From: a virus
Taxonomy: Duplodnaviria > Caudoviricetes
Reading direction: 5' to 3' (one strand)
DNA: 64,000 nucleotides
IMG/VR virus record: IMGVR_UViG_3300021425_003554
Part shown: piece by piece, positions 27,547-40,358 of the stretch
How positions within the stretch are numbered: position 1 is the first letter of the stretch
Layout: each line of letters begins with the position of its first letter
The notes under the pieces: generated by a model
The model's database searches: none
Seen by the model: the letters and a program-made list of their open reading frames with translations, nothing else
What the model was told of the DNA's origin: nothing
Program-made: the position numbers and the translations under genes

Positions 27547-28035
27547 CTAGGCTTTCTTGATTCTATCAAGTAATCCAGGTGAAAATGTTGGTTCGAACTT
27601 TTCGTACACCGTTTTAGTCTTTTCCTTGAACTCTGCTGTTTCTTCCGGGGTAAGCTCGTGAACGTTAACACCCTCTGATTTCAATCTAGCCTTGGCTTCT
27701 TCTCCATCAGCGATCGTTGTTTCACGTTCTTTTCTTCCGGCATCAATTGCGGCCGCTTTTAAAACAGCCTTGACTTCTGGAGATAATTTCTCATAGAAAT
27801 CATTACGCATGATCATGGTTGTTAAGAACAAACTGTGTTTCGTATCAATAACCGATTTGGTCACTTCGTTCTGGTCCAAAGGGTAAACTCTAGAGTAAAC
27901 TCCTTCTCCGCCTTCACATTTTCCTTCTTCGATTGCACCTTTTAGATCTTCTATTTCACAAACGTGTCTATCTGTGACACCTAGTGCTTTGAAGGTTTCT
28001 TGGGCAACCGGGTTTCTGTTAGTTCTAAGTTTCAT
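27547..28035 (-). CDS. TRAP DctP solute-binding protein, C-terminal half
   Basis: KLRT conserved Arg strand, HSLFLT..M, FYEKLSPEVKAVLKAAA. Confidence 0.8.
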   Translation of the reverse strand: MKLRTNRNPVAQETFKALGVTDRHVCEIEDLKGAIEEGKCEGGEGVYSRVYPLDQNEVTKSVIDTKHSLFLTTMIMRNDFYEKLSPEVKAVLKAAAIDAGRKERETTIADGEEAKARLKSEGVNVHELTPEETAEFKEKTKTVYEKFEPTFSPGLLDRIKKA

Positions 28036-28038
28036 TTA

Positions 28039-28509
28039 TTACGCAGTTAAGTCACCTAGTTTGCTAACTTTTTTGTTAGAAACTACGTTTCTGAAACCAC
28101 CTGAGTAAGTAAATGCCATACCTCTAACGTTAGATTTTTCAGTGATTTTATTTAATAATTCTTCACCTACTTCACCTTCTAACACTCTAGTTGCATGATC
28201 ATGATCTGCAAATATGAAAGGCATTTCTAATGCTAACATATCTTGTTCATAATGCTCTGCTAACCATGTAGTGTACATTTGAGACATTTCAATTTTACCT
28301 TGTTCCATCAAGTCTAATAAGTCGTGTTTAGTAACTAATACACCGTTGTTGTATTTGTCACTGTACTCTCTTAATGTCATGATTTCAACTTCGATTTTTT
28401 CTGCAGTCTGAGCTCTGTTCACGAAATCTTGGAAATCTTTAGCCGCTCTTACGAATAAAGATAAAGGCTCGTGTGCAATAACCCATCTGATTTTAGTTGT
28501 TTTTGTCAT
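28039..28509 (-). CDS. TRAP DctP solute-binding protein, N-terminal half (no signal peptide)
   Basis: LEMPFIFADHDHA..LEGEVG, YSGGFR, DL; ends TAA TAA in frame with next ATG. Confidence 0.8.
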   Translation of the reverse strand: MTKTTKIRWVIAHEPLSLFVRAAKDFQDFVNRAQTAEKIEVEIMTLREYSDKYNNGVLVTKHDLLDLMEQGKIEMSQMYTTWLAEHYEQDMLALEMPFIFADHDHATRVLEGEVGEELLNKITEKSNVRGMAFTYSGGFRNVVSNKKVSKLGDLTA

Positions 28510-28637
28510 TGTGTTTCTTCCTTTTTATTTAACGTTAAATCAAGGCTGTGTTTACATTCTTGACTTACTGATATTTACCAATTAAATCAATGATAATATG
28601 TGTTTTCTGGCTAGTTTTAAATAATATACGCATATAA

Positions 28638-33275: not shown

Positions 33276-34019
33276 TTAAAAAATAGTGAGTATATCTGGT
33301 AAATGAAATATTACCAAAATGTAATCTTTGTTTTTTCCGGATTTGAAAAAAGTGTTTGCCAAAAATTTGTCGGGTGTCACTTCCAGCATGGTACCAGGTA
33401 CATGATCATATACTTTTTCCACGGTTAAATTGTCTAATCGATTATACGGATAACCGTTGTTCTGAATCACTGTGTGCCGTAGGTCATATCTAAAACTGTT
33501 GCTGTTTTCTGTTGGCGATATTGGTTGAGAACATCGTTCTAACATTTCCGTGTGATTGGAAGCCGTGTCCGAAAACACCAGTGTCTTGTCCGATGACGGG
33601 TCGGTGTTTATTGGCATTAAAAACATTTTAGTGACCTGCGTCGTATCATGACTAGAATGATGGTATAGGCCGTGAGGTGCATGGCATTCTTGTAGGAACA
33701 TAAAACGAGGCTGGGCAACTTTTAGTTCACTTTTGAAATGCTGTATCTTGTTGATCACTGCCTGTCTTATGCCGTTGCTTGGATCCACGTTGACAAATCT
33801 GGAAAGTGGTTGTAATCGTTCTACTGGTTTGAAAGGAAAGACCGATTCGGGCCTAGAACCGTTGCCGGGATCTACAAAGTTTTTGAAGTCATACGGTTTG
33901 CGTGCCGATGCTTTCAACTGTTTGATCTCGTGTCGTAGCCATTTCAACTGATTGCTGTTCCACACGTCCTTGTGTACATTTGCTACATTCCTGAAAGTGT
34001 CGTTTATATTGTTGCTCAT
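33276..34019 (-). CDS. Degenerate Fe/2OG-oxygenase-like protein
   Basis: Aligns by eye with 35811 ORF but lacks HxD and distal His. Confidence 0.5.
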   Translation of the reverse strand: MSNNINDTFRNVANVHKDVWNSNQLKWLRHEIKQLKASARKPYDFKNFVDPGNGSRPESVFPFKPVERLQPLSRFVNVDPSNGIRQAVINKIQHFKSELKVAQPRFMFLQECHAPHGLYHHSSHDTTQVTKMFLMPINTDPSSDKTLVFSDTASNHTEMLERCSQPISPTENSNSFRYDLRHTVIQNNGYPYNRLDNLTVEKVYDHVPGTMLEVTPDKFLANTFFKSGKNKDYILVIFHLPDILTIF

Positions 34020-34075
34020 ATATCTGTATTTAACTAATTTTCGCCGACTATTCTATGATCATTAAATAAAACATC

Positions 34076-34849
34076 ATGCAAAACATCAAAGAAGCCAGAC
34101 AACTGATACGTGCCGGGGAATACACTGGATATACCAGTGGATGGTGTAGAGACTATGTTCAGGGTAACTTGTGCATAGTGGACAAGTCGGATGCCGAGGA
34201 TTTCGCAGAGTTCTGCAGATTGAATCCAAAACCGTGTCCGGTGTTGGCACAGGGAGATCCCGGAGATCCAGTGTTGAAGTCATTGGGGGATATCAACATA
34301 TGTACCGATCTTCCCAGATATCGCGTGTGGCGTAAAGGTAAATTAGTGGACATAGTTTCTGACATTTCGTCATACTGGACCAACGACATGGTGGCCTTTG
34401 TTCTCGGATGCAGTTTCAGTTTTGATCAACTGTTCTTGGATGCAGGACTGCCGTTGCCTCATCTCAATGATGGTTCGATGGTGGCCATGTACCGCACCTG
34501 GAACGAATGCGAGTCCGTGGGCAAATTTCGAGGACGACTGGTGGTGAGCATGAGACAGTTCCGTGCGGACCATGCCATAGAATCCATAGCGATATCGTCA
34601 AGGTATCCACTGGCACATGGAACTCCTGTACACATCGGAGATCCCACACAGATAGGAATACGAGACCTAACCAAACCCGATTACGGAGATGTGCCCAAAG
34701 TTGTGCAGGGACATCTGCCTGTGTTCTGGGCCTGTGGTGTGACGCCACAGAGCATATTGACCACATCGCCGGATGTGGAGATAGCGATCACACACCAGCC
34801 TGGTTGTATGCTGTTGACCGATATACCTTATTCAAAAATAGCAGTGTGA
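34076..34849 (+). CDS. D-glutamate cyclase family (DUF1445/UPF0317)
   Basis: FCRLNPKPCPVL, TDLPRYRV, GCSFSF, HGTPVHIG, FWACGVTPQ, THQPGCML. Confidence 0.92.
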   Translation: MQNIKEARQLIRAGEYTGYTSGWCRDYVQGNLCIVDKSDAEDFAEFCRLNPKPCPVLAQGDPGDPVLKSLGDINICTDLPRYRVWRKGKLVDIVSDISSYWTNDMVAFVLGCSFSFDQLFLDAGLPLPHLNDGSMVAMYRTWNECESVGKFRGRLVVSMRQFRADHAIESIAISSRYPLAHGTPVHIGDPTQIGIRDLTKPDYGDVPKVVQGHLPVFWACGVTPQSILTTSPDVEIAITHQPGCMLLTDIPYSKIAV

Positions 34850-34857
34850 TAGATCTA

Positions 34858-35493
34858 TCACTGATCGATCATCAGATCATGTATTTGTTGGAAGTCATGA
34901 TCTTTTCTCATTTTGTTTTCTAATCGCAAACTCATGATTATCCTCTCATGTGTGGTAGAGGTGTTCCCCCAGTAATGCCACTCGCCGGTGTTTATCAACA
35001 TTGCCTGGTCGTTCTGTAGCACAGTGGTACAGGCCCGAGGTGTCTGTAGTTGACCTTGCATGTCCCACCATTCATCGTCCACGTTGTGTACATCGCTATA
35101 GATTGTCCGTGGATCATTCTTCAACACTTCATCATCCACCCAGTAGGTGTTGCAACATTGGTCCAGCACCTTTATGGGGAAATTCAATCCCACCAGGTCG
35201 TCGGCACCTGGGCCTTCGGTCCTGTCTCTGTGCAGTGAGGAATAATCTCCGGGCTGTGATATCAGAACACTTCCGATTCTTTGCCACGATATGCTGTCCG
35301 GGCCGGGCAGGCAATGATATATCTCTGACAGATCTATGCTTTTGCGAGTGTGCTTCCGGGCTGTCGGGAATGTGTGTGGTTGACAAACCCTGTCGTCATT
35401 GACGTGTGCCTGTAGCCAAGATATTATTTTGGGCAATCCGGGCCAGGTGATCGTGGTGTAATAGGGAGAGTGATCTGAGATGACTTTCATCAT
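34858..35493 (-). CDS. Fe/2OG-oxygenase-like protein
   Basis: SLHRD, LINTGEWH, ERIIMSLR; start refined to ATG behind GATAAATA. Confidence 0.65.
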   Translation of the reverse strand: MMKVISDHSPYYTTITWPGLPKIISWLQAHVNDDRVCQPHTFPTARKHTRKSIDLSEIYHCLPGPDSISWQRIGSVLISQPGDYSSLHRDRTEGPGADDLVGLNFPIKVLDQCCNTYWVDDEVLKNDPRTIYSDVHNVDDEWWDMQGQLQTPRACTTVLQNDQAMLINTGEWHYWGNTSTTHERIIMSLRLENKMRKDHDFQQIHDLMIDQ

Positions 35494-35562
35494 GTGCTGA
35501 TATTTATCGGCATGGATCAAACAGCATATTATGGTGACACACGCGATATTAAGTATTTTTGT

Positions 35563-35817
35563 ATGTACACCATAGAGCAGAGGAAGACCATATACCTCAT
35601 GACACGCAAACCGGTGTGGTATCACACTCACTGCCTCACACCGGGACCGGGCAAACCCCTGTGGTACGATCCCACGTGGGTCATAGGCGAGTGCGAACTG
35701 TGCCGCATGGACATAGCCGGCCAGGACTGGTGGAACGGTTGCAGTTATCGACAATCACAGAGAAAGGTGTACGACGGCCTGATCAATCAACGCCACTGGT
35801 TTGGTGTTGATCAGTAG
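35563..35817 (+). CDS. Small Cys/Trp-rich hypothetical protein
   Basis: MYTIEQRK..CELC..; fills the gap between minus-strand genes. Confidence 0.45.
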   Translation: MYTIEQRKTIYLMTRKPVWYHTHCLTPGPGKPLWYDPTWVIGECELCRMDIAGQDWWNGCSYRQSQRKVYDGLINQRHWFGVDQ

Positions 35818-36500
35818 GACTCGTTGCGGAACTGTCGGGCGAAGGGTCCTTGTTTGATGGTGGTGTGTATCAGCAGATAGTCCTTGTGTTGGCGTTCCGG
35901 TGAGTGCCTCTGCCAATCAGATCCAGCGTGTATGGCGTGTGCATCAAAACACACAGCATCTCCCAACCTGTACTCGAACACACCGGCCACTGTCATGTGA
36001 TCCACCACTGATTCACAGTGTTCCAGTTGATAGCGTAGTCGGTGATCACCCCTGTGGGGCCATGTGCTCGCACTGTGTATTATGCGTTGTTGGGCCTGGT
36101 GTGCATCGATCTGTTCCTGTCGTAGGTCAGTGATGGTGCTGTGATCAAACACCACTGTGCGATCCACGCCGGGGGTGACGTGTCGCAACGGCAACAGTAT
36201 GCTGTGTCCACGACCCTGATTGGGATGGTTGTCGGTGTGCAGGCTATTTGACCGGTGCTGTTCCACGAAGGCCATGAATGTGAGCTTCTCGTCGGGCAGG
36301 TCCTCCATGACACGCATCGCGAACTGCTGTGTGATGGGATAGAGGTGCTGTTGGGCATTGATCCTGTATCTCCGGGCCATTGCAGTGCGTCCCATGTCGG
36401 GCAGGGGTTCACGCTCCAGGCACTGATCCATTTCCGCACAGATCTGCTCCAGCTCTGCTGTGCTGACCACATCGTGCAGTACTCGGAAATCCACTGTCAT
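35811..36500 (-). CDS. Fe/2OG-oxygenase-like protein
   Basis: SLHTD HxD, distal HAGS; TATAAATA 5 nt upstream of ATG at 36500. Confidence 0.65.
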   Translation of the reverse strand: MTVDFRVLHDVVSTAELEQICAEMDQCLEREPLPDMGRTAMARRYRINAQQHLYPITQQFAMRVMEDLPDEKLTFMAFVEQHRSNSLHTDNHPNQGRGHSILLPLRHVTPGVDRTVVFDHSTITDLRQEQIDAHQAQQRIIHSASTWPHRGDHRLRYQLEHCESVVDHMTVAGVFEYRLGDAVCFDAHAIHAGSDWQRHSPERQHKDYLLIHTTIKQGPFARQFRNESY

Positions 36501-36524
36501 GCTGATATTTATAGGGTGATTGTT

Positions 36525-36570
36525 TGACCCGGCTCCGCTGTGGACGAAACCGGGCGGATCCCACAGTCCC
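36525..36570 (-). ncRNA. Pseudoknotted trailer RNA 3' of the atypical tRNA
   Basis: CTGTGG/CCACAG, TCCG/CGGA, CCCGG/CCGGG pairings in A-C-B-A'-C'-B' order. Confidence 0.5.
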
Positions 36571-36572
36571 TT

Positions 36573-36669
36573 TGGTACGGTCAACAGGACTCGAACCTGT
36601 AGTGCCCTCTCGAGCTCCAGCGTCAAAACACCGGATGTGTCTGGATACTCCTGATTTCACCATGACCGC
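36573..36669 (-). tRNA. Atypical class II (Leu-like) tRNA-like RNA with non-canonical D and anticodon arms
   Basis: 7-bp acceptor GCGGTCA/TGACCGT, A73, CCA, T-arm ACAGG-TTCGAGT-CCTGT, variable arm GCTC-GAGA-GGGC; TGTTATAAT just upstream. Confidence 0.75.
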
Positions 36670-36765
36670 ACACGCATTATAACATGGCCCCGATGGTAAT
36701 GCTAGACCTTTTTTTTCTGCTGTGCAAATTTTTTTGATCTGAGGAACACCGGGTGTAGGCAGTTT

Positions 36766-36936
36766 TTACAACAGCAATCGCCTGTCCACTTCGCTCGCGG
36801 GCACATCACACACCTGTACCAGATCATATCGCTGTTCCAGTGAGTCATGCAGTATGTCAGCGGATTCCCGATCCAACTGCACATAGCAACGATGTAGTAT
36901 ACGGCCCTTTTGACACATAACGTAGTAGTACTTCAT
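36766..36936 (-). CDS. Small hypothetical protein
   Basis: 56-aa ORF MKYYYVMCQKG.. Confidence 0.4.
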   Translation of the reverse strand: MKYYYVMCQKGRILHRCYVQLDRESADILHDSLEQRYDLVQVCDVPASEVDRRLLL

Positions 36937-37170
36937 GTAGGTTATTATACGTTCAAACGACACAGTTGTCAAACCTGGGTATGCAGGGTAAAAAAATCCG
37001 CTGTGCATTTTTTTTAATATGGGGGTATTTTAGCACCACCCCGGTCCTTTTTAGGCCATGGGGCTTACAAATTGCCAAATTTATTACCAAAATAAAAATG
37101 CTATGCGACCGGGGCCAGATCTTTTTCTTTCTGGGTCCAGCCGGCCGACCCTGATTATTAAATATAACAT

Positions 37171-37842
37171 ATGGACAGGATGCAGAGATTGGTGGCCTTT
37201 GGATGTAGCAACACCCTGGGCGAGGGACTGGAGGGCTTCCAGTGGCGACAGCCTCACCCACGGGCATGGCCGGCCGTGTTGGGTCAGCAACTGGACCGAC
37301 CGGTGTTGAACCTGGGCCACTCGGGCGCCAGCAACAGGTACATAATGGATCGTGTGTTGAACACACCGCTCACACGCACCGACACAGTGGTGATCATGTG
37401 GACCAGTTTCGCCAGGCACTGTTGGTTCGATGCGGGGGGACAGGTGCGGCGTGCATTGCCACACGACATAGGAAGGCCACACGAATGGCCACACGACGGA
37501 CCCGAGATCGATGGTCGGCTCAGCGAGCTCTATTACCAACACATATGGTCGGCGCACGATGCCTGGCACGCCAGCATGACACAGATCAACTGGACACAGG
37601 CCTACCTACAGCGGCTGGGCGTGAGATGCCTGCACCTGCTGTGGTGGGAGGGCGATCATCACCGGGACAGGCCCTCATGGAACCAGACCCTGATACACAA
37701 CCTGCCGTTCAGCCAGGAGGACCGTGCACCGGACGGCCACCATCCGGGCGTGAACTCACACCACACACAGGCCCTACGCATCCGGGAACTGCTGTTCCGC
37801 ACACACCCCAACCACCCGGCCACCCTGCGATCCCACAGTTGA
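37171..37842 (+). CDS. SGNH-hydrolase-like phage protein (paralog of 22160 ORF)
   Basis: GCSNTLG, NLGHSGASN, DGHHPG; TTAAATA 6 nt before ATG. Confidence 0.7.
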   Translation: MDRMQRLVAFGCSNTLGEGLEGFQWRQPHPRAWPAVLGQQLDRPVLNLGHSGASNRYIMDRVLNTPLTRTDTVVIMWTSFARHCWFDAGGQVRRALPHDIGRPHEWPHDGPEIDGRLSELYYQHIWSAHDAWHASMTQINWTQAYLQRLGVRCLHLLWWEGDHHRDRPSWNQTLIHNLPFSQEDRAPDGHHPGVNSHHTQALRIRELLFRTHPNHPATLRSHS

Positions 37843-38107
37843 TCTCTCCTTAGATGTGCCTCAATTACCAATAGATCGGGTTGATCTCTCCGTGTGCCCA
37901 CTCGGCACAACGAAGCTCACTGTGCGAACACTTGGTCAAAATGGTCCAAAATGGTACGCCAGGCCCGCCGCCAGCCCTGTGGTTATTGCATAGATTTTAC
38001 CAGATCAACTCGGTAATTGGATTGGCTATGTGGTTATCGCATGGCACTCGGACCGGTCGGGATCGCCCTTTACCACCACCAATCCGGCTGGGGATAAGTA
38101 CTCATAT

Positions 38108-38311
38108 ATGTTCAAGATGATAGTGGTGATATGTGCCCTGGGCAATCCCTGTGTGCAATTCGTGGAGAACCAACACCGGGTGTATGCCACACAAAACCAG
38201 TGCCTGGATCGTGCGGAGATCAAGTACCAACAGCTCACAGCAACACTGATCCAAGCGGGTTATCGACTGGCCGATTCCGGCTACTACTGTGTGAGGGACG
38301 ACAGCATATGA
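38108..38311 (+). CDS. Small Cys-containing, possibly secreted protein
   Basis: MFKMIVVICALGNPC..; GATAAGTA 7 nt before ATG. Confidence 0.55.
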   Translation: MFKMIVVICALGNPCVQFVENQHRVYATQNQCLDRAEIKYQQLTATLIQAGYRLADSGYYCVRDDSI

Positions 38312-38636
38312 TCTGGGATCTAGTGATAATAACGCTGTCAATGGTGGCCTATGCCTACATGGCCTGGTCACTGCATAAGTGAACCAACACACCCCCCACC
38401 GACCCCAAGGCATATTGTTCGCAGATCAGTACCGCTCCCTACCTTTGCACACGGTGGCCAATCGGTGGCCCTCACCCCGGCCAGATCAACCCCAACACGC
38501 CTTTAGGCGTTTGCGACCCAGATTTGCGTATCGAAGGTCACAATTCTTTTGGTAAGATCCTAAGGATGGGGCACTATGCTAAAATACGGCAACCGCTTTT
38601 AGCCACCATACGACACGATCCCGCATACATACTCGT

Positions 38637-38765
38637 ATGCCGTTTAGATACTATTGGGAATGGTTCCTGTTCTGGGTCACTGGCTATCCCTGTTGGGACT
38701 GTGTGAGGATACGCCTGATCATCCTGGTCCTGCTCGTCATCGTTGCCCATTTTTTGCTAGCCTAA
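38637..38765 (+). CDS. Small membrane protein with CxxC (not in ORF track)
   Basis: MPFRYYWEWFLFWVTGYPCWDCVRIRLIILVLLVIVAHFLLA. Confidence 0.5.
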   Translation: MPFRYYWEWFLFWVTGYPCWDCVRIRLIILVLLVIVAHFLLA

Positions 38766-39243
38766 ACAGCCTCCACCATAAACGACCCACGGTGCTCTAC
38801 CATTCCAATTGTGCTTCACACACTGAACTCGCAGGCGATCTAGCCAAGAGGAGTCAGGGTAGATCACAGTTGGGATTATCAGCAGGCACTCTAGGTTAGG
38901 ATAGGGCTCGGTGTCAAAAATTGCTGTCGCGATATGCCTGTAAGGCATATAATGGAAACAAGCATTTGGTAAAATTTTTGCGGCGCACCGCTTCGCGGAC
39001 AGGGCCTATGGCTTCCGGTTGGTAATACCATGTCTGTGTGCTCTGGGGGTGGCTAGGTTAGGGATTGGATGGACTATGGATTCACATACTGGCCACACTC
39101 AAAACCGTGATGGTCGTGAGGTAAGTGATCAGTAGGGTGTATATGGCTATCTTGAGCTTCAGCATCTGTTCCTTGTTGTTGGGATTGTTGAACCTAGACT
39201 ATATATCTGTGGTTGGTTTTTTTTGGGTGGATATGCGAGCCTA

Positions 39244-40134
39244 TTACTGTTGACCCGCATACTTGATTATGAACTTGAGAACTTCCTGTGTGAATACATC
39301 CTTGACTCCAGTGAAACCATGTGCGTCTGCCTGTACTCCGCAACCTCTGGGATCCTTGCCCGGTCCCTTCCAAGTTTCCTCACCGCCTGTTATCTTGACC
39401 AAATATGTGGGTCCGGCGTTCATGCCCTTGTCGGTGTATTTCTTGTATCTGTTCTTGGCCGCCCTGTAGGATGTGCTGGGACACTTGTCCTTCTCGTGGT
39501 GTATGATCAGGGCCGGTATGTTGAATTGCTGGACCTCCAGTCCTCGTTTGCCCGGATACGGAGCCGATTGATTGCCCCCGGACCATATGGCACCCGACAC
39601 CAGGGTTTGGTTCTCTTCCTGCATCAACAGATAGCCCGAGACTCCCTGGGCACCCGCCGAATGACCCATGATGAACACGGGTTTTCCAAATTGCTCGTGA
39701 GCCCACAGCACCACTGACTTGACTCTGGCCACATAGTCCTCGGACCATCTGCCCGGACCACCCCAATCACCGTTGGGCATCTTCTTGTCGTTCCTGATCT
39801 CATAGCCCACGTCAACACCCACGGTGGTAATGATGTTGGAAAGGTGTTCTATGGGACCAAAGTTCAGTGAGTTGACACGACCCCTGCCACCCTGCAACCA
39901 AACGATCACGGCCGGCGAGTCCTCAACGGCACTCACCACCATTTTGGTGAAGAGACCGGTCTGTCCCTTGTCTTTACAGTCCTCGGACACACACTCCACG
40001 AATCTGATGGAATCACCCGCCAAACCATGATGTGCCTTGGCCGGCAACGAAACCACGCCCAATAGCATCAACACCGCTATGGCACCACCCACGGTGCCCA
40101 CGGTCAATTTGACAAAATCAATGATGTTCCTCAT
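39244..40134 (-). CDS. Exported alpha/beta-hydrolase-like protein
   Basis: N-terminal hydrophobic segment, GHSAG nucleophile elbow, IIHHEKD, distal HGF. Confidence 0.7.
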   Translation of the reverse strand: MRNIIDFVKLTVGTVGGAIAVLMLLGVVSLPAKAHHGLAGDSIRFVECVSEDCKDKGQTGLFTKMVVSAVEDSPAVIVWLQGGRGRVNSLNFGPIEHLSNIITTVGVDVGYEIRNDKKMPNGDWGGPGRWSEDYVARVKSVVLWAHEQFGKPVFIMGHSAGAQGVSGYLLMQEENQTLVSGAIWSGGNQSAPYPGKRGLEVQQFNIPALIIHHEKDKCPSTSYRAAKNRYKKYTDKGMNAGPTYLVKITGGEETWKGPGKDPRGCGVQADAHGFTGVKDVFTQEVLKFIIKYAGQQ

Positions 40135-40358
40135 TGGGCCATCTCCCTCTCTGGATCGTATTCCGATATCTCGTAATTGTGGATCTCCAGAACCCGCTTC
40201 ATGTTCTCAACGGCCTCCAACCTATTGGTCCTTGTTGGAAAACCCGTGTCCGACAGGTCCAACTTGATCTTGTCAAACAGGTCCATCAACTTCGCCACTT
40301 CCTTGTCCGTCAGGTAGTCCTTGATATTGTATCTCATTTTATCTCCGATCTTTGACAT
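40131..40358 (-). CDS. Early hypothetical protein
   Basis: Coupled ORF starting MSKIGDKMR. Confidence 0.65.
   Translation of the reverse strand: MSKIGDKMRYNIKDYLTDKEVAKLMDLFDKIKLDLSDTGFPTRTNRLEAVENMKRVLEIHNYEISEYDPEREMAQ

Follow-up and report, generated by a model that had tools for sequence, protein, structure and literature searches.

A conserved tRNA-Leu-like phage RNA with a plain hairpin in place of its anticodon arm

Introduction

Several relatives of tRNA that take no part in decoding are already known, among them the tRNA-like domain of transfer-messenger RNA (tmRNA), pseudo-tRNAs, and the cell-wall tRNA-Gly of staphylococci. Here we describe a 97-nucleotide (nt) tRNA-like RNA, encoded on the minus strand at 36573-36669 of a 64,000-nt stretch of virus DNA (Duplodnaviria; Caudoviricetes; IMG/VR record IMGVR_UViG_3300021425_003554; the whole stretch is called the window hereafter), that combines a tRNA-Leu body with a plain hairpin at the position of the anticodon arm. 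The tRNA-like domain of tmRNA is an aminoacylatable mimic that lacks an anticodon and resembles the phage RNA in having an acceptor stem, a T arm, and CCA (PMC3985003); it differs in its G3.U70 alanine identity, reduced D arm, pseudoknots, and tag frame, whereas the phage RNA has G3-C70, a full cloverleaf, and no tag, and neither ARAGORN nor Rfam calls it a tmRNA. The tRNA-Other of Bacillus cereus is, like the phage RNA, an island-borne, tRNA-derived RNA that does no translation work and has an apparently non-decoding role, but it keeps its anticodon arm, is chromosomal and of another isotype, has neither a D-loop insert nor a conserved 3' hairpin, and shows no sequence kinship with the RNA described here (PMC3399842). 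The nonproteinogenic tRNA-Gly species of Staphylococcus aureus provide a precedent for dedicated tRNA paralogues that feed a nonribosomal transferase; these have a normal anticodon loop and escape translation by weak binding to EF-Tu (PMC7826273), whereas the phage RNA is predicted to bind EF-Tu with ordinary affinity. Finally, RNAs C and D of phage T4 (PMC3014915), compared here by description only, are small stable phage RNAs near tRNA genes with a role that is not established; they lie inside the tRNA cluster, whereas the RNA of the window is a separate unit.

The body of the RNA is that of a leucine tRNA, the ancestor from which it descends. In an alignment with Escherichia coli leuV (tRNA-Leu CAG), the two share a 7-bp acceptor stem starting with GCG1-3, C2-G71, U8, a 3-bp D stem with G10 and G12, A14, A15, G18G19, A20a-G21-A22, a class-II variable arm that ends in U48, a UUCRAGU T loop, A73, and an encoded CCA. 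The phage RNA differs from leuV in a 7-nt insert after G19, in the loss of the 5-bp stem and 7-nt anticodon loop, in the presence of G73 in one class of homologues, and in having a promoter of its own directly at G1 and a conserved 3' trailer and hairpin. Minimalist tRNA-Leu molecules without anticodon and variable arms have been engineered (Larkin et al. 2002, as cited in PMC9976931), and according to that summary leucyl-tRNA synthetase (LeuRS) charges a body that lacks the anticodon arm if A73 and the D loop's contacts with the T loop are intact. Those molecules are laboratory constructs, whereas the phage RNA is a natural, conserved gene; insofar as the summary names the elements concerned, the phage family keeps the same ones as the chargeable constructs, charging of the phage RNA itself being putative. 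In the literature, we found no natural RNA described as having a complete class-II tRNA-Leu body and identity set together with a plain hairpin as its anticodon arm.

A class-II cloverleaf without an anticodon

The RNA folds into a class-II cloverleaf with G1 at 36669 and the terminal A of CCA at 36573, as the original prediction had held, and this assignment rests on ARAGORN, Rfam, the minimum-free-energy fold, covariation, and the leuV alignment. In the window copy, the acceptor stem is formed by GCGGUCA and UGACCGU, positions 8-9 are UG, position 26 is A, and a 3-bp D stem (GUG/CAC) encloses an 18-nt loop. This loop contains the 7-nt insert AGUAUCC (36643-36649, minus strand), which a 7-column gap in the E. 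coli row of the alignment places exactly after G18G19, where it had been predicted, and which could form a GGA-GUA-UCC mini-hairpin. The hairpin that replaces the anticodon arm (36616-36635, minus strand) reads UCCGG-UGUUUUGACG-CUGGA and extends to a stem of 7-8 bp that closes a loop of 4-6 nt, in the extended drawing UCCGGUG(U)-UUUG-(A)CGCUGGA. It is followed by the class-II variable arm (36601-36615, minus strand; GCUC-GAGA-GGGC, then ACU), which comprises a 4-5 bp stem, a GAGA tetraloop, and U48, and by the T arm (ACAGG-UUCGAGU-CCUGU), the 3' strand of the acceptor stem, the discriminator A73, and the encoded CCA (together 36573-36600, minus strand).

Standard tools recognize this RNA imperfectly. 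ARAGORN reports a 97-nt 'tRNA-Gly(tcc)' that is reached by a forced alternative fold, and the Rfam tRNA model (RF00005) matches only in sensitive mode, with 30.9 bits against a gathering score of 29 and with insertions of 13 nt in the D loop and 12 nt in the anticodon loop; a default Rfam scan at the gathering cut-off gives no report for the RNA. The minimum-free-energy fold is the cloverleaf, with a z value of only -1.75. A covariance model built for the family (R1) finds no second copy in the window. Ordinary phage tRNAs for Thr, Ala, and Glu, all of which encode CCA, are called by ARAGORN at 22.9-23.1 kb, and the tRNA-like RNA is a separate unit 13 kb from this cluster.

Homologues and selection on structure

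Relatives of the RNA were found by DNA pattern scans and by tracing relatives of the adjacent dioxygenase (described below) to their contigs. This yielded nine distinct homologous sequences, all on phage-like contigs of marine, estuarine, or marsh metagenomes, which fall into four classes: class A (the window, L026, L027 (= L001/L003), L031 (= L034), L040, and L002 (= L004)), class B (L005-L007), class C (L015-L017 and L039), and class D (L008 and L009). ARAGORN labels class D as 'tRNA-Ser(aga)' and misses classes B and C. We compared a structure-guided alignment of the nine (A4) with a null of 500 column shuffles on five measures. Standard pairs fill 99.3% of the pair cells and six pairs have changed on both sides; in 0/500 shuffles did any of the measures come up to the value observed, and sliding the 3' partner lowers pairing to 35-49%. 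These values and the conservation of the RNA in nine homologues bear out the expectation that it is under selection.

Much of the covariation lies in the anticodon-position stem, where five of the seven pairs are compensatory in class D (GCCAGAA/UUCUGGC, against UCCGGUG/CGCUGGA in class A and UCCGGUG/CACUGGA in classes B and C) and every cell remains paired. The loop that this stem closes is free to vary, reading UUUUGA in class A, CCAGA in class B, CCAGU in class C, and UUCG in class D; all four classes combine a stem of 7-8 bp with a loop of 4-6 nt, and a standard 7-nt anticodon loop, whose absence had been predicted from the window copy, occurs in none. The stem of the variable arm also varies with pairing kept, whereas its GAGA tetraloop is found in all classes and U48 is invariant. 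In class D, the D-loop insert reads AGUACCAC and is able to form UGG-AGUA-CCA, with one compensatory pair counted, so that a GG...CC hairpin option exists both there and in class A (GGA-GUA-UCC). The T stem, D stem, and CCA do not vary between classes, and changes in the acceptor stem are limited to G-U/G-C or U-A/U-G exchanges at 5:68, 6:67, and 1:72 that keep the pairing (position 72 is U in classes A and D and C in classes B and C). The expected A73-CCA terminus holds in part: CCA is invariant and A73 is found in classes A, B, and D, but class C has G73.

The near-invariant parts of the family are thus the acceptor stem, the core of the D stem, the T arm, U8, A14, A15, U48, G18G19, A20a-G21, and CCA, and these stand in DNA whose flanks are largely unalignable between classes. 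Coding through the RNA is excluded by indels between classes, and covariation together with free variation of the loop rules out pseudogene decay, decoding or frameshifting, and any function that depends on the loop sequence. The RNA cannot be selected on any codon, and we conclude that it is very probably a selected, non-decoding tRNA-like RNA.

Leucine identity elements

In E. coli, the leucine determinants are A73, A15-U48, G18G19, A20a, and D/T-loop contacts; neither the anticodon nor the sequence of the variable arm is a LeuRS determinant, tRNA-Leu variants without an anticodon arm remain chargeable, G73 is an antideterminant for LeuRS, and C2-G71 blocks seryl-tRNA synthetase (SerRS) (PMC9976931). 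In the phage family, A15-U48, U8-A14, A20a, and U54-A58 of the T loop are present, invariant, and aligned with leuV, and the RNA carries the SerRS antideterminant C2-G71. With the exception of A73 in class C, the family retains every LeuRS identity element established in E. coli. The conserved and the free positions of the family thus match the list of determinants (PMC9976931), which supports a LeuRS-centered reading, and on these sequence grounds charging of the RNA by LeuRS is plausible. The T-stem pairs A49-U65, C50-G64, and A51-U63 predict an EF-Tu affinity of ~-9.7 kcal/mol, which is ordinary (Table 2, PMC3239215); what keeps the RNA out of translation would thus be its lack of an anticodon and not weak binding to EF-Tu.

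Promoter and expression

An extended -10 box, TGTTATAAT (TGnTAnAnT; 36684-36676, minus strand), lies 6 nt before G1 in all classes, in agreement with the original prediction of a promoter at this distance. The TG, T-12, A-11, A-9, and T-7 are invariant in 11/11 aligned loci, and the spacer between box and G1 is a constant 6 nt in length and varies in sequence, while the flanks farther upstream diverge. An upstream part of the conserved module (36686-36734, minus strand) contains A-tracts and a weak -35-like CTAGCA and marks the left edge of the conserved unit: L031 is unrelated farther upstream than about -65 and conserved everywhere downstream of that point, and AAAAAAAGGTCTAGCAT of this part is also found in class B. 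A two-hexamer sigma-70 scan makes no promoter call at TGTTATAAT or in the upstream part. In class B, the RNA needs a promoter of its own because the upstream gene there is on the other strand. In the window, the promoter scan also found, at 36766-36972 on the minus strand, a perfect sigma-70 promoter (36972-36944, TTGACA-17-TATAAT, 12/12 match) followed by a 56-aa open reading frame (ORF; 36936-36766), and since this promoter is on the same strand, read-through into the RNA is possible in the phage of the window. The 56-aa ORF encodes a Cys-containing protein (MKYYYVMCQKGR...) that has no Pfam match and is conserved in most class A loci.

A 191-nt module is present in 19 metatranscriptomic runs, which come from 19 studies. 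Two of these runs, X27 and X31, are sparse and yielded only 2-5 pieces of 18 kb, one of them being the module. This argues against uniform carry-over of DNA. These expression data consist of assembled contigs only, so starts and ends of the RNA cannot be read from them; contig ends fall at 36573 (the CCA end), at 36500 (the A of the dioxygenase ATG), and at 36935/36936 (the start expected from the upstream promoter). Transcription of the RNA is likely.

The 3' trailer and hairpin

Past the CCA, three to five variable, A-rich nt are followed by a nearly invariant single-stranded trailer, GGACUGUGG(G)AUCC (36556-36569, minus strand), and then by a 12-bp hairpin, GCCCGGUUUCGU-CCACA-GCGRRRCCGGGU (36527-36555, minus strand), and an A-rich tract. 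The trailer is nearly invariant in all classes, and the hairpin is predicted in every one, with all 12 pairs 100% paired; its variation is confined to the three purines opposite UUU (GAG, GGA, GAA, AGG, or AGA) and to a basal G.U that changes to A-U. The whole 150 nt fold as the cloverleaf plus this hairpin with -56.7 kcal/mol.

We considered several known functions for this element. It is not recognizable as an intrinsic terminator, as the hairpin is followed by CAAACAA, UAAAAAG, or similar sequences without a U tract, and a scan of 36300-37300 gives no terminator call. The trailer CUGUGG is complementary to CCACAG of the hairpin loop, and a pseudoknot between them is possible; when this pairing is forced, the energy is -11.1 kcal/mol, whereas the hairpin fold reaches -22.1, a cost of 11 kcal/mol, and the sequences do not vary there. 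Its position 3' of a tRNA-type phage gene and the complementary blocks, which can be drawn as a pseudoknot, recall the theta ribozymes that resemble that of hepatitis delta virus, the motif of which is a nested double pseudoknot (P1-P2-P3/L3-P1.1-P4) that cleaves at a G1 beside the tRNA 3' end and has its catalytic C in J4/2 (PMC10879173). In the phage element, only 5 nt separate the would-be 3' strands of P2 and P1, which makes P3/L3 impossible, P1 would start with C-G and not with G1.U, and cleavage would fall 6 nt past CCA; the comparative data favor a plain 12-bp hairpin, and we reject the theta reading. Rfam (E<=10) matches no ribozyme family in the RNA or the 3' element. A relationship to YrlA or other bacterial Y RNAs was likewise rejected, since the termini form an acceptor stem ending in CCA and not a Ro-binding stem, and Rfam gives no Y-RNA match; no Ro/TROVE protein (rsr) was found among the neighbors scanned. 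Finally, the trailer does not encode an N-terminal extension of the dioxygenase: class-specific indels shift the frame, there is no consistent start codon, the reading stops after 17 codons in class D, and homologous proteins start at the conserved ATG.

Phage setting and neighboring genes

From its sequence, the window looks like part of a large marine jumbo phage related to T4 and PA5oct. One protein of the window (350 aa) has a match to phrog_1250 and shares 51% identity with proteins of PA5oct-like jumbo phages, and the genome should measure several hundred kb, as close fragments of 37-40 kb have a CheckV-type completeness of 6-11%. The genome has ~33% GC, and the RNA lies in the middle of an island (~34000-40200) with 49-55% GC whose other genes encode a D-glutamate cyclase, two proteins without a Pfam match, a DUF6071 protein, and an alpha/beta hydrolase. 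The island includes two 2-oxoglutarate (2OG)-oxygenase-like genes, and L031 has the same kinds of genes in another arrangement. Pfam, PHROGs, and PDB-profile searches of the neighboring proteins reveal no tRNA-related function, and PF04377 (the ATE/Bpt family) was not found in the related fragments G001 and G002.

In classes A-C, the RNA is followed 72 nt downstream by the start of a gene for a 229-aa Fe(II)/2OG dioxygenase (35811-36500, minus strand) with an invariant HxD...H motif; an AlphaFold model of this protein matches AsqJ, OkaE, FtmOx1, SnoN, and PhyH in Foldseek with probability 1.0. The motif TATAAATA (36506-36513, minus strand) stands 5 nt before the ATG (36500-36498). We take this motif to be that of T4 late promoters, the spacing of which would start an mRNA at or beside the A of the ATG. 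There is no Shine-Dalgarno sequence before this ATG; together with the conservation of the junction in loci that lack the RNA and the one RNA-library contig that ends exactly at the A of the ATG, this suggests leaderless or near-leaderless late mRNAs in this group of phages. The TATAAATA-ATG junction is kept in L010-L014, where the dioxygenase and D-glutamate cyclase form a cassette without the RNA, and in class D the RNA precedes a different gene, a 212-aa ORF; the RNA is therefore a separate unit and not an obligatory leader of the dioxygenase. Automated annotation obscures this arrangement, with tRNA finders mislabeling the RNA as Gly or Ser and gene callers running the dioxygenase ORF through it. 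The public gene calls P0001 (271 aa), P0002 (252 aa), and P0003 (251 aa), which start in the RNA or its trailer, overextend a dioxygenase of truly ~229-231 aa, and P0002 and P0003 carry a spurious 'MDPPGFVHS...' N terminus translated from the 3' hairpin.

Possible functions

We tentatively favor the view that the RNA is a tRNA-Leu mimic that would be bound, and probably leucylated, by the LeuRS of the host and would act off the ribosome, because conservation covers the portions recognized by proteins that contact the acceptor end and elbow of a tRNA, and freedom to vary those used in reading codons. In this mechanism, host sigma-70 RNA polymerase would start at or next to G1 and produce an early leaderless transcript, while RNase P would trim any read-through transcripts begun farther upstream. 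Until its trimming back to CCA, the primary transcript would be bounded or protected by the 3' hairpin, and the mature 97-nt RNA would adopt the L shape of a tRNA and be recognized by proteins binding at its acceptor end and elbow, with LeuRS, which does not need the anticodon, as the first candidate reader. Off the ribosome, the RNA could serve either as a dedicated leucine carrier for an aminoacyl-tRNA-dependent transferase or as a competitor for LeuRS. If the RNA is charged, the engineered minimalist tRNA-Leu would have a natural counterpart, and the virus a means of separating an aminoacyl carrier or LeuRS ligand from translation.

Several observations weigh against this proposal. Given the G73 of class C, charging by LeuRS could be conserved throughout the family only if the enzymes of the hosts differ. 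The insert in the D loop adjoins G18G19 and A20a and can pair with G18G19 (as GGA/UCC or UGG/CCA; GG is present in all classes), and such pairing, which is predicted from the sequences, may break the elbow contacts that LeuRS requires. The 3' trailer is conserved as strongly as the tRNA body, for which a LeuRS model does not account, and in none of the loci scanned is there an aminoacyl-tRNA-using enzyme next to the RNA. Furthermore, the RNA-library contigs continue upstream past G1 for 50-270 nt, and their ends, which fall on the borders of the conserved module, may reflect strain variation. The narrower proposal of a natural, anticodon-less, LeuRS-charged tRNA-Leu that is solely an off-ribosome donor of leucine is unlikely in our judgment; if true, it would allow an aminoacyl-tRNA-dependent reaction, such as rewriting of protein N termini, to draw on a private pool that no codon uses. 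A donor for nearby ligases, as once suggested for this RNA, did not find support in the locus: the RNA travels with the Fe(II)/2OG dioxygenase cassette, which also occurs without it, and to our knowledge the neighboring PP-loop enzymes are not users of aminoacyl-tRNA.

Somewhat less probable than the LeuRS-bound mimic is a decoy or sponge for host defense or toxin proteins that are directed at tRNA and recognize the acceptor end, the elbow, or the class-II body, for example nucleotidyltransferase or HEPN toxins acting at the 3'-CCA or acceptor-stem nucleases; an early RNA would soak up such effectors and leave decoding undisturbed. A decoy would be in keeping with the early sigma-70 type of the promoter, with the conservation of the top half and CCA alongside a free anticodon-position loop, with the good representation of the module in RNA libraries, and with the phage tRNAs countering tRNA-cleaving defenses that the literature documents. 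A single gene copy, however, must compete with the abundant host tRNA pool, and scans of the neighborhood gave nothing on tRNA repair or counter-defense and identified no defense or toxin partner. If this explanation is true, the RNA would represent RNA-based counter-defense at the acceptor end of tRNA.

We consider improbable a cis-acting role, in which a tRNA-shaped processing or stability signal ('tRNA punctuation') would act with the 3' hairpin to cut or insulate early read-through before the late dioxygenase gene or, in a variant, would provide a protective 5' structure on an early dioxygenase mRNA. Its position 72 nt upstream of the dioxygenase in classes A-C, the conservation of trailer and hairpin as strong as that of the tRNA body, the perfect sigma-70 promoter and small ORF upstream on the same strand, with RNA-library contigs that span into the RNA, and the contig ending exactly at the CCA end (36573) are in line with such a role. 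A processing signal would not, however, need the full LeuRS identity set, CCA, and U48, and the hairpin has no U tract; moreover, the dioxygenase cassette occurs with its own TATAAATA-ATG junction but without the RNA in L010-L014, the class D RNA precedes a different gene, and the class B RNA has only its own promoter.

Far less probable still is a decaying tRNA-Leu pseudogene or integration-site remnant carried along with the GC-rich island. The 49-55% GC of the island in a genome of ~33% GC, the frequent use of tRNA genes as recombination targets, and an Rfam score only at threshold are compatible with this origin, but the RNA sits in the middle of the island and not at its edge, stem substitutions are compensatory, changes are concentrated in one loop, and there is no variation in the acceptor stem, T arm, CCA, or key -10 positions between classes whose flanks cannot be aligned. 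The decay of all arms among homologues that a pseudogene would show is not seen. Hardly tenable, finally, is a role in decoding or one centered on the anticodon loop, namely the frameshifting tRNA with an expanded loop or the anticodon-nuclease decoy (UUU/UUG-like loop) of the original prediction. A 10-nt U-rich loop can be drawn for no copy but that of the window, whereas the homologues have 7-bp stems with CCAGA, CCAGU, or UUCG loops and no class has a U33-anticodon-purine37 pattern or a 7-nt loop, which rules out frameshifting and makes the nuclease decoy unlikely. Tolerance of any sequence in the anticodon-position hairpin makes it an evident site for an affinity tag.

Database searches and additional observations

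Broader searches define the range of the family. BLAST of the GC-rich island against phage and plasmid records gave no match, a distant nucleotide search with the RNA returned only 31-nt T-arm matches to tRNA-Arg, and 185,579 species-representative genomes contain no bona fide tRNA with a matching T arm and acceptor stem. In IMG/VR, the real matches of the pattern scans are two close relatives only; seven matches of the 5' pattern (L019-L025) all lie inside ORFs and were judged to be due to chance, as were single matches of the 3' pattern (L018) and the D-arm pattern (L048). The sole match of the genome scan, L041:707-779 (plus strand; DATFWX010000158.1, a metagenome-assembled genome of a Polyangia bacterium), is a tRNA-like minihelix that has the acceptor stem and T arm of class C (GCGGUCA...ACAGGUUCAAGUCCUGU UGGCCGC G CCA), one long hairpin instead of the D, anticodon, and variable arms, and a TAGAAT box upstream, and it scores 21.6 bits with R1.

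Nine bacterial metagenome contigs with CCGGTTTCGTCCAC after a T-loop-like motif (L028:7200-7400, L029, L030, L032, L033, and L035-L038; ~60% GC) were judged unrelated to the phage RNA. The pattern match was caused by a shared 14-mer only, the same hairpin is not formed, the best R1 score is 14.3 bits (E 0.025) over 25 positions, and ARAGORN finds no tRNA in any of the nine. These contigs have a conserved, structured-looking region of ~190 nt that is closed by UGCAGCGGCGA...UCGCCGCUGCA, contains a T-loop-like GGTTCGACTCC and repeated CGGCGAATGCCGG..GGAACTACAG units, and often lies just past a tRNA-like T arm; scans of L028, L029, and L036 gave no Rfam family at gathering score for this region.

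Two further features were noted in the course of these analyses. In each of the four metatranscriptomes compared, contigs cover the region 28000-28550 of the window (minus-strand ORFs 27547-28035 and 28039-28509), with the highest depth of the 18 kb; the region is probably a highly expressed or widely shared gene. In class C, a glutamine riboswitch (RF01739) is found upstream of a 64-aa ORF directly before the RNA, at L015:892-948, where the complete copy scores 28.1 bits and falls below the gathering threshold of 35, and at L016:1-48, where a copy cut by the contig end scores 46.3 bits.

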